This document shows positions 38,005 to 38,833 of a stretch of 64,000 nucleotides of DNA, piece by piece; position 1 is the stretch's first letter, and each line of letters opens with the position of its first letter. The notes beneath the pieces are model-generated. The model did no database searches. It saw only the letters and a program-made list of their open reading frames with translations, and was not told the origin of the DNA. The position numbers and the translations under genes are program-made. The stretch comes from Escherichia phage vB_EcoM_G4498. The stretch is taken from the sequence record NC_054918.1, one strand, 5' to 3'.

Positions 38005-38081
38005 TGGTCGAGACAGAAGGATTCTAACCTTCAACCTACGGATTAGAAGTCCGTTGCTCTATACAATTGAGCTATGCCTCG
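38005..38081 (-). tRNA. tRNA-Arg: tRNA-Arg (anticodon TCT), CCA encoded
   Basis: cloverleaf folded by hand: 7-bp acceptor, D-stem GCTC/GAGC, anticodon loop CUUCUAA, T-loop. Confidence 0.85.
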
Positions 38082-38085
38082 TATT

Positions 38086-38160
38086 TGGCGGACGTGATAG
38101 GATTCGAACCTATAACCAATCGCTTAACAGGCGATCGCTCTGCCATTGAGCTACACATCC
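38086..38160 (-). tRNA. tRNA-Asn: tRNA-Asn (anticodon GTT), CCA encoded
   Basis: acceptor GGATGTG/CACGTCC, anticodon stem ATCGC/GCGAT, loop CUGUUAA, T-loop GGTTCGAATCC. Confidence 0.8.
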
Positions 38161-38164
38161 AAAT

Positions 38165-38251
38165 TGGTGGGGAGCGATGGAGTCGAACCACCCGAGTCGC
38201 AATGACAATGGATTTACAGTCCACACCGCTACCTCTACGGGATAACTCCCC
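38165..38251 (-). tRNA. tRNA-Tyr: tRNA-Tyr (anticodon GTA), long variable arm, CCA encoded
   Basis: acceptor GGGGAGT/GCTCCCC, anticodon loop CUGUAAA, long variable arm as in bacterial tRNA-Tyr. Confidence 0.75.
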
Positions 38252-38260
38252 TAATTAATT

Positions 38261-38335
38261 TGGTGGCCCTGGGTGGAATTGAACCACCATCTGGCGATTA
38301 TGAGTCGCTTGCTTGAACCTTCCAGCTACAGGGCC
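38261..38335 (-). tRNA. tRNA-Ile: tRNA with anticodon CAT (T4 tRNA-Ile position; Ile2 via lysidine, or Met)
   Basis: acceptor GGCCCTG/CAGGGCC, anticodon loop CUCAUAA; directly adjacent to tRNA-Thr as in the T4 Thr-Ile precursor. Confidence 0.8.
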
Positions 38336-38336
38336 T

Positions 38337-38412
38337 TGGTGCTGATTGACGGAATCGAACCGCCGACCTTCTCATTACAAGTGAGTTGCTCTACCTACTG
38401 AGCTAAATCAGC
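38337..38412 (-). tRNA. tRNA-Thr: tRNA-Thr (anticodon TGT), CCA encoded
   Basis: acceptor GCTGATT/AATCAGC, D-stem GCTC/GAGC, anticodon loop CUUGUAA. Confidence 0.85.
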
Positions 38413-38417
38413 AAAAC

Positions 38418-38507
38418 TGGCGGAGGCGATAGGATTTGAACCTATGAGTCGCCGGAGCGACTGCCGGTTTTCAAGACCGGTGCATTAAACCACTCTGCCA
38501 CGCCTCC
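38418..38507 (-). tRNA. tRNA-Ser: tRNA-Ser (anticodon TGA), type II, CCA encoded
   Basis: acceptor GGAGGCG/CGCCTCC, anticodon stem CCGGT/ACCGG, loop CUUGAAA, long variable arm. Confidence 0.85.
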
Positions 38508-38509
38508 AG

Positions 38510-38584
38510 TCTCCGTGACAGGATTTGAACCTACGACATTCTGCTCCCAAAGCAGACGCTCTACCAAACTGAGCTACACGGAGT
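38510..38584 (-). tRNA. tRNA-Pro: tRNA-Pro (anticodon TGG), CCA not encoded
   Basis: acceptor CTCCGTG/CACGGAG, anticodon loop UUUGGGA; abuts tRNA-Ser (dimeric precursor arrangement). Confidence 0.85.
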
Positions 38585-38593
38585 AAATTAAAT

Positions 38594-38667
38594 TGGAGCG
38601 GATAATGAGAATCGAACTCACATCATCAGATTGGAAGTCTGAGGTAATACCATTATACGATATCCGC
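38594..38667 (-). tRNA. tRNA-Gly: tRNA-Gly (anticodon TCC), CCA encoded
   Basis: acceptor GCGGATA/TATCCGC, anticodon loop CUUCCAA. Confidence 0.85.
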
Positions 38668-38672
38668 AAATT

Positions 38673-38759
38673 TGGTGCGAGAAGTGGGACTCGAACCCAC
38701 AAGGAAATCATTCCGCAGCATTTTAAGTGCTGTGCCTTTACCAATTTGACCATTCTCGC
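38673..38759 (-). tRNA. tRNA-Leu: tRNA-Leu (anticodon TAA), type II, CCA encoded
   Basis: acceptor GCGAGAA/TTCTCGC, anticodon stem CAGCA/TGCTG, loop CUUAAAA, long variable arm. Confidence 0.85.
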
Positions 38760-38760
38760 G

Positions 38761-38833
38761 CTGGGAATAAAGGACTCGAACCTTTGCATCCTGGAATCAA
38801 AATCCAGTGCCTTACCAACTTGGCTAATTCCCA
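38761..38833 (-). tRNA. tRNA-Gln: tRNA-Gln (anticodon TTG), CCA not encoded
   Basis: acceptor TGGGAAT/ATTCCCA, anticodon loop UUUUGAU; 1 nt from tRNA-Leu (dimeric precursor arrangement). Confidence 0.85.

Follow-up and report, generated by a model that had tools for sequence, protein, structure and literature searches.

Escherichia phage vB_EcoM_G4498 (NC_054918.1) carries ten transfer RNA (tRNA) genes in one cluster within the 64,000-nucleotide (nt) stretch of DNA that we analysed, hereafter the window, whose coordinates are used throughout. We conclude with considerable confidence that the cluster belongs to an ordinary T2-like Tequatrovirus operon without segB. It would comprise ten functional tRNAs, a small open reading frame (ORF) and the stable RNA genes rnaD and rnaC, and its probable function is codon supply; T4 probably lost tRNA-Tyr and tRNA-Asn from such an operon by way of SegB. 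A first-pass annotation made from the letters alone had set the cluster against T4 and implied that it was unusual. That implication was not supported, since no other arrangement is as common in the genus and a 2008 study had already published it for T2L (PMC2330249). The operon type is already known: hundreds of genomes carry annotations of it, and experiments have dissected it in T2L (2008) and T6 (2026). The apparent novelty arose because T4, the atypical member, had served as the yardstick.

The tRNA cluster and its relatives

ARAGORN called ten tRNA genes and no others in the whole 64-kb window, all on the minus strand within 829 bp (38005-38833). They are transcribed in the order Gln(UUG)-Leu(UAA)-Gly(UCC)-Pro(UGG)-Ser(UGA)-Thr(UGU)-CAU-Tyr(GUA)-Asn(GUU)-Arg(UCU), identical in order, anticodons and coordinates to the first-pass annotation. 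Nine of the ten pass the Rfam RF00005 gathering threshold of 29 bits, with scores of 59.3-74.1 bits and E values of 2e-10 to 2e-14, and a chance origin of these nine matches is excluded. The genes, with Rfam scores, are tRNA-Gln (38760-38833; 67.4 bits), the class II tRNA-Leu (38673-38759; 59.3 bits), tRNA-Gly (38594-38667; 65.8 bits), tRNA-Pro (38509-38583; 67.9 bits), the class II tRNA-Ser (38418-38507; 62.6 bits), tRNA-Thr (38337-38412; 72.9 bits), a CAU tRNA best read as tRNA-Ile2 (38261-38335; 59.9 bits), the class II tRNA-Tyr with its long variable arm (38165-38251; below the Rfam threshold), tRNA-Asn (38086-38160; 74.1 bits, the top score in the window) and tRNA-Arg (38005-38081; 71.1 bits), a third allele of that gene. 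Minimum-free-energy folding of single tRNAs gave non-cloverleaf D-arms in several of them, including Pro, Gly and Tyr; we judged it uninformative and used covariation instead.

The 3' ends and spacers were as first described. CCA is encoded in eight of the ten genes and missing only from Gln and Pro, and three pairs are tightly spaced: read from the sequence, a single C separates the Gln discriminator G from Leu, two nucleotides (CU) separate the Pro discriminator A from Ser, and one nucleotide lies between the CCA of Thr and the CAT gene. T4, by comparison, encodes no CCA in Gln, Pro, Ser or Ile, whereas the window encodes it in Ser and in the CAU gene.

Allele by allele, divergence from T4 is uneven. 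The Leu and Gly genes are each 100% identical to their T4 counterparts, and the Ser body is identical to T4 at 87 of 87 positions and to T2 at 90 of 90. Identity to T4 is 96% for tRNA-Thr, a gene that T2 does not have. The tRNA-Gln is 89% identical to the T4, T2 and T6 genes and 100% identical to that of phage G4507, and tRNA-Pro is likewise 89% identical to T4 and differs to the same extent from the T2 and T6 alleles (89%). Relative to T4, the whole anticodon stem of tRNA-Gln is swapped with compensating changes, and its loop reads UUUUGAU against CUUUGAC in T4. The anticodon loop of E. coli tRNA-Gln is presumably UUUUGAU too.

The cluster shares its genomic position, strand and promoter sequence with the tRNA region of T4 (NC_000866, 70908-72530), and Gln-Leu-Gly-Pro-Ser-Thr follow in the same order. 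In T4 the tRNAs number eight and segB separates Ile from Arg; a comparison of the two regions agrees with the earlier statement that Tyr and Asn are absent from the T4 set. Window 38316-39877 aligns with T4 72014-73577 at 96.9%, taking in the first 20 nt of the CAT gene, Thr to Gln and the trna.2-.4 ORFs. Downstream of the cluster, window 37298-37636 corresponds to T4 70827-71168, covering rnaC and rnaD, and 36170-36653 matches T4 e.8 and its flank at 92.5%. On both sides of a replaced core, synteny is kept at 90-97% identity. In that core, window 37637-38315 stands in place of T4 71169-72013: in T4 the segment comprises segB, the T4 Arg and the 3' portion of Ile, and in the window it comprises Tyr, Asn, an ORF of 116 amino acids (aa), an Arg(TCT) unlike that of T4 and the greater part of a CAT tRNA that likewise differs from T4.

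By alignment, the difference from T4 is best described as a cassette exchange and not an insertion. The earlier statement that Tyr and Asn sit between Ile and Arg stands as to position; it does not stand as an insertion, since 37637-38315 was exchanged together with CAT and Arg alleles unlike those of T4. We rejected the description 'T4 plus two inserted genes' on the ground that neither the CAT gene nor Arg has a blastn match to its T4 counterpart. Arg had also been called contiguous with the rest of the cluster. This is true with respect to the other tRNAs, but the 116-aa ORF now separates Arg from rnaD and rnaC, whereas T4 Arg directly abuts rnaD.

T2 (MH751506; T2L, EMBL AJ880101) has a core of the same type as the window. 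It has no segB, and its CAU-Tyr-Asn-Arg, 116-aa ORF, rnaD and rnaC are arranged as in the window, with continuous homology over 37298-38335 at 95.6%. It differs in having a 133-aa ORF (trna.1) where the window has tRNA-Thr, which leaves nine tRNAs, and in its Arg(UCU), Gln and Pro alleles (84%, 89% and 89% identical). The T2L region was described as having no segB and as containing tRNA-Met(CAU), Tyr, Asn, an isoacceptor Arg and two ORFs (Brok-Volchanskaya et al. 2008, PMC2330249), and the T2L primers printed there match the 5' ends of the window Asn, Tyr and ORF.

T6 (AP018814) has seven tRNAs, Gln-Leu-Gly-Thr-Ile-Tyr followed by segB and a T4-type Arg, and is without Pro and Ser. For the CAU gene it has the T4-type Ile, and Tyr directly follows the CAU tRNA as in the window. 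Where the window has Asn, the window-type Arg and the ORF, T6 has segB and the T4-type Arg. Homology between the two runs through Tyr and an ATTT spacer and ends at the first base, the 5' edge, of Asn, a breakpoint of the kind that SegB homing at Asn would leave.

Searching with the 829-bp cluster matched 918 phage records, 391 of which cover at least 80% of it. In each of the best 60 of the 918, the cluster matches as one colinear piece (823-833 bp, 96.4-98.6% identity), and most of the cluster matches listed annotate ten tRNA names. Phage 310Ecol104PP (OR062946) has the same ten genes, order, spacing and flanking ORFs at 98.6% over 829 bp, and Shigella phage Shfl2 (HM035025) has the same genes, order and spacing at 98.2% over 829 bp; these two and Sf24, all ten-tRNA Tequatroviruses, differ from the window by point substitutions only. 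The ten-gene state is the majority arrangement, of which T4, T2 and T6 each represent a depleted version. Other variants are seen in G4507 (MK327946.1, 2086-2161), which has an extra tRNA-His(GUG) with a spacer of ~115 nt between Asn and Arg, and in KMB23 (OR525702.1, 2706-3356), where a homing-endonuclease gene replaces tRNA-Pro.

The window itself belongs to Tequatrovirus, and its 2-kb surroundings match Shfl2 at 97.5% as well as many other Tequatroviruses. In a 23-kb comparison, the best among the matches listed reach 94.7-96.7% identity at 91-93% coverage. None of the listed matches rises above these values, and we therefore regard the genome as a new mosaic isolate within a well-known genus. 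When the cluster was searched against 5,426 E. coli genomes, none of the matches listed exceeded ~81% identity, the best being tRNA clusters on plasmid-sized records of 72-198 kb, and on this ground we rejected a recent capture of the extra tRNAs from the host.

The two genes at the downstream end of the cluster bear on SegB. The window tRNA-Asn is identical to the T2 gene at 75 of 75 positions, and the preferred 27-bp site of SegB lies entirely inside T2L tRNA-Asn (PMC2330249). The window gene contains GGTTCGAATCC and then ...CCGCCAA, matching the SegB site elements GGTTCRANTCC and CCAR, and so by its sequence appears to carry the preferred homing site. The T-arm motif GGTTCRANTCC is present in eight of the ten window tRNA genes.

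Arg combines the D-loop AAUUGUAUA with the T-loop UUAGAAU, and by position appears to have U19-A56 in place of the near-universal G19-C56 elbow pair; the T2 Arg, 84% identical, has the canonical G19-C56. The C-to-A change breaks the core SegB motif (GGTTAGAATCC versus GGTTCRANTCC). The window Arg had no blastn match to T4 Arg, and a forced alignment matched 30 of 39 bases. The window-type Arg is 100% identical in RB51, Sf24 and APCEc01, occurs in 117 records at at least 99% identity and lies directly beside segB in Salmonella phage F13076. Only side observations are mildly new here, chiefly this U19-A56 allele.

Codon supply, counter-defence and homing

We compared codon usage between the window (66 long ORFs) and 50 kb of E. 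coli sequence (48 long ORFs). Enrichment in the phage is strongest for ATA (3.7-fold), AAT (3.5-fold), AGA (3.1-fold), TAT (3.0-fold), TCA, GGA, ACT, TCT, ACA and TTA, the lowest of these ten at 2.3-fold. The first-pass annotation had proposed comparing late genes with the host for Asn and Tyr codons. Nine of the ten codons are readable by the cluster anticodons under standard decoding, with U34 modification for ACT and TCT, and ATA is readable by the cluster only if the CAU tRNA is of the Ile2 type. Tyr (1.97-fold) and Asn (1.74-fold) are the two most enriched amino acids relative to the E. coli sample. This pattern is what the classical supply model would lead one to expect, and Tyr and Asn come naturally under that model too.

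The operon would then probably work as follows. A MotA-type middle promoter upstream of tRNA-Gln would drive one polycistronic transcript of ~1.6 kb, ending at a hairpin after rnaC, and host RNase P and 3'-trimming enzymes would cut the precursor. The Gln-Leu, Pro-Ser and Thr-Ile pairs would pass through dimeric intermediates, and the host CCA-adding enzyme would complete Gln and Pro. The mature tRNAs would supply decoding for AUA, AAU, AGA, UAU, UCA, GGA, ACA/ACU, UCU and UUA, which the AT-rich phage overuses relative to its host; the CAU tRNA, as an Ile2-type tRNA, would need host lysidine synthetase to read AUA. Tyr and Asn would form part of the common set of the genus, and SegB homing at Asn would have given T4 both segB and another Arg allele.

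Several points weigh against this account. With 12,312 codons the host sample is small, and ribosomal-protein genes are abundant in it; the match between codon use and the tRNA set is a correlation that does not show that supply limits growth. The tRNA region of T4 and T2L has been described as non-essential (PMC2330249). Promoter, terminator, dimeric precursors and CCA repair are assigned by homology to T4, and loss in T4, in preference to gain in the window lineage, is suggested by breakpoints and not by a phylogeny. Finally, tRNA-Tyr fails the general Rfam model, and its T6 orthologue has been called relatively unstable (PMC13096335).

A different main role, compatible with codon supply and one that we hold possible though doubtful, is counter-defence, with phage Tyr and Asn replacing or outnumbering host tRNAs cut by immune nucleases. 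The targets would be tRNA-Tyr for Septu or retron-Eco7 PtuAB, and tRNA-Asn and tRNA-Thr for AriB of PARIS. Septu cleaves tRNA-Tyr in the variable arm; overexpressed or amplified T6 tRNA-Tyr rescues T6 from Septu, while T4, which lacks the gene, cannot escape, and T5 tRNA-Tyr resists retron-Eco7 through its variable loop (PMC13096335). The T5-like phage chee24 has nearly the variable arm of the window Tyr. However, Septu also cleaves T6 tRNA-Tyr, a single copy fails to protect wild-type T6 (PMC13096335), and the window has no segB to drive amplification of Tyr.

For PARIS, AriB cuts E. coli tRNA-Asn at U36AAUC|C41, and a U39-to-A change abolishes cleavage of tRNA-Lys (PMC12409363). The window tRNA-Asn reads U36AAG39C40G41, in which G39 breaks the UAAU motif, and resistance to AriB is conceivable. 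Even so, PARIS should still work because the cluster contains no tRNA-Lys, and the close fit to codon demand already explains the tRNA set without defence. It seems rather improbable that the Arg allele is immune to the homing endonuclease and, jointly, that the phage tRNA-Asn resists AriB. If both were true, parts of the operon would have been shaped, beyond codon demand, by nucleases acting on DNA (SegB) and on RNA (PARIS).

Less probable still than a main role in counter-defence is that the gene content mainly reflects selfish DNA traffic, the cluster being the product of the last gene-conversion tract at homing landing pads with little selection on Tyr and Asn; we think this unlikely. The breakpoints among T4, T2, T6 and the window fall at or inside tRNA genes, and cassettes vary: segB is present in T4, T6 and F13076, KMB23 carries another endonuclease gene instead of Pro, T2 an ORF instead of Thr, and G4507 an additional His. 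Arg(UCU) occurs as three unrelated alleles and the CAU gene as two, the SegB motif recurs across the cluster as described above, and in crosses of T4 with T2L ~1250 bp of the T2L region were erased and T2L markers excluded (PMC2330249). Against this, hundreds of isolates keep the ten-gene version colinear at 96-99% identity, orthologues differ in ways that leave base pairing intact and the set matches the ten most enriched codons, which together argue for purifying selection on function. Homing endonucleases clearly shape which alleles are present, and codon supply from an ordinary T2-like operon remains our preferred explanation of the set.

Identity of the CAU tRNA and tRNA-Tyr

The CAU gene was labelled Met by ARAGORN and is called tRNA-Met in the T2L study (PMC2330249) and in most GenBank records. 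Its identity is 100% to the T2 gene but only 65% to T4 tRNA-Ile. Among the best matches sampled from 5,426 E. coli genomes, every one (71-82% identity) bears the annotation tRNA-Ile, and only two places match in a K-12-derived genome. The one matched host gene that we fetched has a CAT anticodon and shares with the phage tRNA the acceptor stem GGCCCUx (GGCCCUU versus GGCCCUG) and the anticodon arm xGCGA-CUCAUAA-UCGCx (GGCGA-CUCAUAA-UCGCU versus AGCGA-CUCAUAA-UCGCC). Read from the sequence, the phage tRNA carries C4-G69, C5-G68, C29-G41 and A73, which are reportedly determinants for TilS and IleRS.

Initiator tRNAs are recognized by the state of the 1-72 pair and by three G-C pairs above the anticodon loop. 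Because G1-C72 is paired in the CAU tRNA and no run of three G-C pairs lies above its anticodon loop, it should not be an initiator. The gene is best read as a lysidine-dependent tRNA-Ile2 that would read AUA, closest to host ileX/ileY, and the Ile assignment of the first-pass annotation was borne out by the host matches, the shared stems and the enrichment of AUA. That it is instead an elongator tRNA-Met is very unlikely: the sampled host best matches are all tRNA-Ile, the fetched gene shares both anticodon and stems, the reported TilS and IleRS determinants are present, AUA is the most enriched codon (3.7-fold) while ATG is not enriched (0.92-fold), and the T2 record remarks of its own gene 'CAU anticodon probably modified'. 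We rejected the Met reading on the host matches, stem identity and the contrast between AUA and ATG.

tRNA-Tyr gave no RF00005 match at the gathering score of 29 bits in the Rfam search, and in a permissive search its top clan match was tRNA-Sec, at 32.7 bits against a gathering threshold of 47 bits. We therefore relied on covariation, aligning ten sequences from five phage genera and E. coli: the window, T2, T6, G4507, a Vequintavirus, two T5-like phages, a Jiaodavirus, a Felixounavirus and E. coli tyrT. Pairs were counted for a class II cloverleaf, and one Enterococcus phage match was kept out because ARAGORN called no tRNA there. Pairing across the alignment is 100% in the acceptor, anticodon, variable-arm and T stems, with 13 pairs changed on both sides. 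None of 500 shuffles reached any observed measure, and slid controls dropped to ~50% paired. The D-stem is 70% paired, with a C x C mismatch common to nine of the ten sequences.

The window gene is 98% identical to T2 and 97% (84/87) to T6, and has the same variable arm as T6. T6 tRNA-Tyr is expressed in infection, is visible on northern blots and rescues infection against Septu (Chihara et al. 2026, PMC13096335). The covariance test proposed in the first-pass annotation thus divided: Asn passed at 74.1 bits, while Tyr was rejected by the general Rfam model and was rescued by covariation and the T6 orthologue. Because four stems covary and its T6 orthologue has experimental support, the window gene is no false positive but a conserved tRNA-Tyr of phage type whose D-arm is unusual; its membership rests on the ARAGORN call, this covariation and the T6 experiments, and not on its RF00005 score. 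That it is a decaying pseudogene, as its low score, D-stem mismatch and label of tRNA-OTHER in some records might suggest, is barely credible and was rejected, given that the same D-arm is kept across five phage genera while 13 pairs in other stems covary, and that northern blots show the T6 orthologue, which also rescues infection (PMC13096335).

This Tyr type is shared by unrelated genera, namely Tequatrovirus, Vequintavirus, T5-like Demerecviridae, Felixounavirus and Jiaodavirus, and the D-stem mismatch is common to its members. Its distribution suggests that one tRNA-Tyr type may have spread horizontally among coliphages. The variable-arm loop measures 5 nt in most members and presumably 3 nt in E. 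coli tRNA-Tyr.

The transcription unit, its neighbours and the place of T4

Within the ipI-e region, the operon is flanked by the trna.2/.3/.4 ORFs on one side and e.8 on the other, and it shares its strand with the early and middle genes. A candidate middle promoter (38902-38926, minus strand) starts with the MotA-box-like TGCTTTA (38926->38920), followed after 12 nt by TATTAT (38907->38902). It stands ~70 nt upstream of tRNA-Gln and is identical in sequence to that of T4, where a middle promoter just upstream drives the whole tRNA cluster and the transcript ends after the species I RNA gene (PMC2330249). A sigma-70 promoter scan found no excess, with 13 sites against 13.1 in shuffled sequence.

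The predicted 116-aa ORF (37636-37986, minus strand) between tRNA-Arg and rnaD belongs to phrog_3355 (E = 5.6e-52), a family of unknown function, and has no Pfam match. It is identical to the T2 protein at 112 of 117 positions, is RB51ORF141-like and corresponds to trna.2 of T2L, as judged by a printed primer (#24) that matches the start of the ORF (PMC2330249). The 5' end of the rnaD (species 2 stable RNA) homologue (37524-37636, minus strand) adjoins the stop codon of this ORF. By blastn it matches positions 4-53 of T4 rnaD at 96% and 94-119 at 93%; the first ~55 nt and last 27 nt of the T4 RNA are kept, and the middle ~40 nt are replaced by unrelated sequence. The rnaC (species 1 stable RNA) homologue (37379-37517, minus strand) aligns with T4 rnaC over 139 of 139 nt at 97.8%. 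Its 3' part is tRNA-like and contains the T-arm-like GGTTCAAATCC, and neither ARAGORN nor Rfam called a tRNA at this locus. In G4507, the stretch homologous to the 3' 94 nt of rnaC is annotated tRNA-Lys(ttt). A terminator-like hairpin (37305-37328, minus strand), found by a pattern scan 50 nt after rnaC, has 10 pairs, 6 of them G-C, and then TTTTT.

Beyond the operon, a 187-aa ORF (36662-37225, minus strand) of phrog_2280, of unknown function, is absent from T4 between e.8 and rnaC, and T4 70827-70854 aligns on both sides of the insertion. Its N-terminus, MKTYAEFLTEA, resembles what we take to be the capsid-targeting leader of T4 internal head proteins. At the T4 ipI position, three small tandem ORFs on the minus strand (39876-40112, 40178-40486 and 40548-40838) begin with similar leaders, METYQKFIVEA, MKTFKEFINEA and MKTYQEFIAEA, which suggests that they may form a variable set of internal proteins.

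This locus illustrates three forces acting on phage tRNA genes: codon demand, tRNA-targeting immunity, as with Tyr and Septu, and homing endonucleases that land in tRNA genes. T4, the textbook reference, would represent a derived and depleted state, reached through SegB homing that replaced Asn and its neighbours, and differences from T4 in the tRNA region should therefore not be read as novelties.

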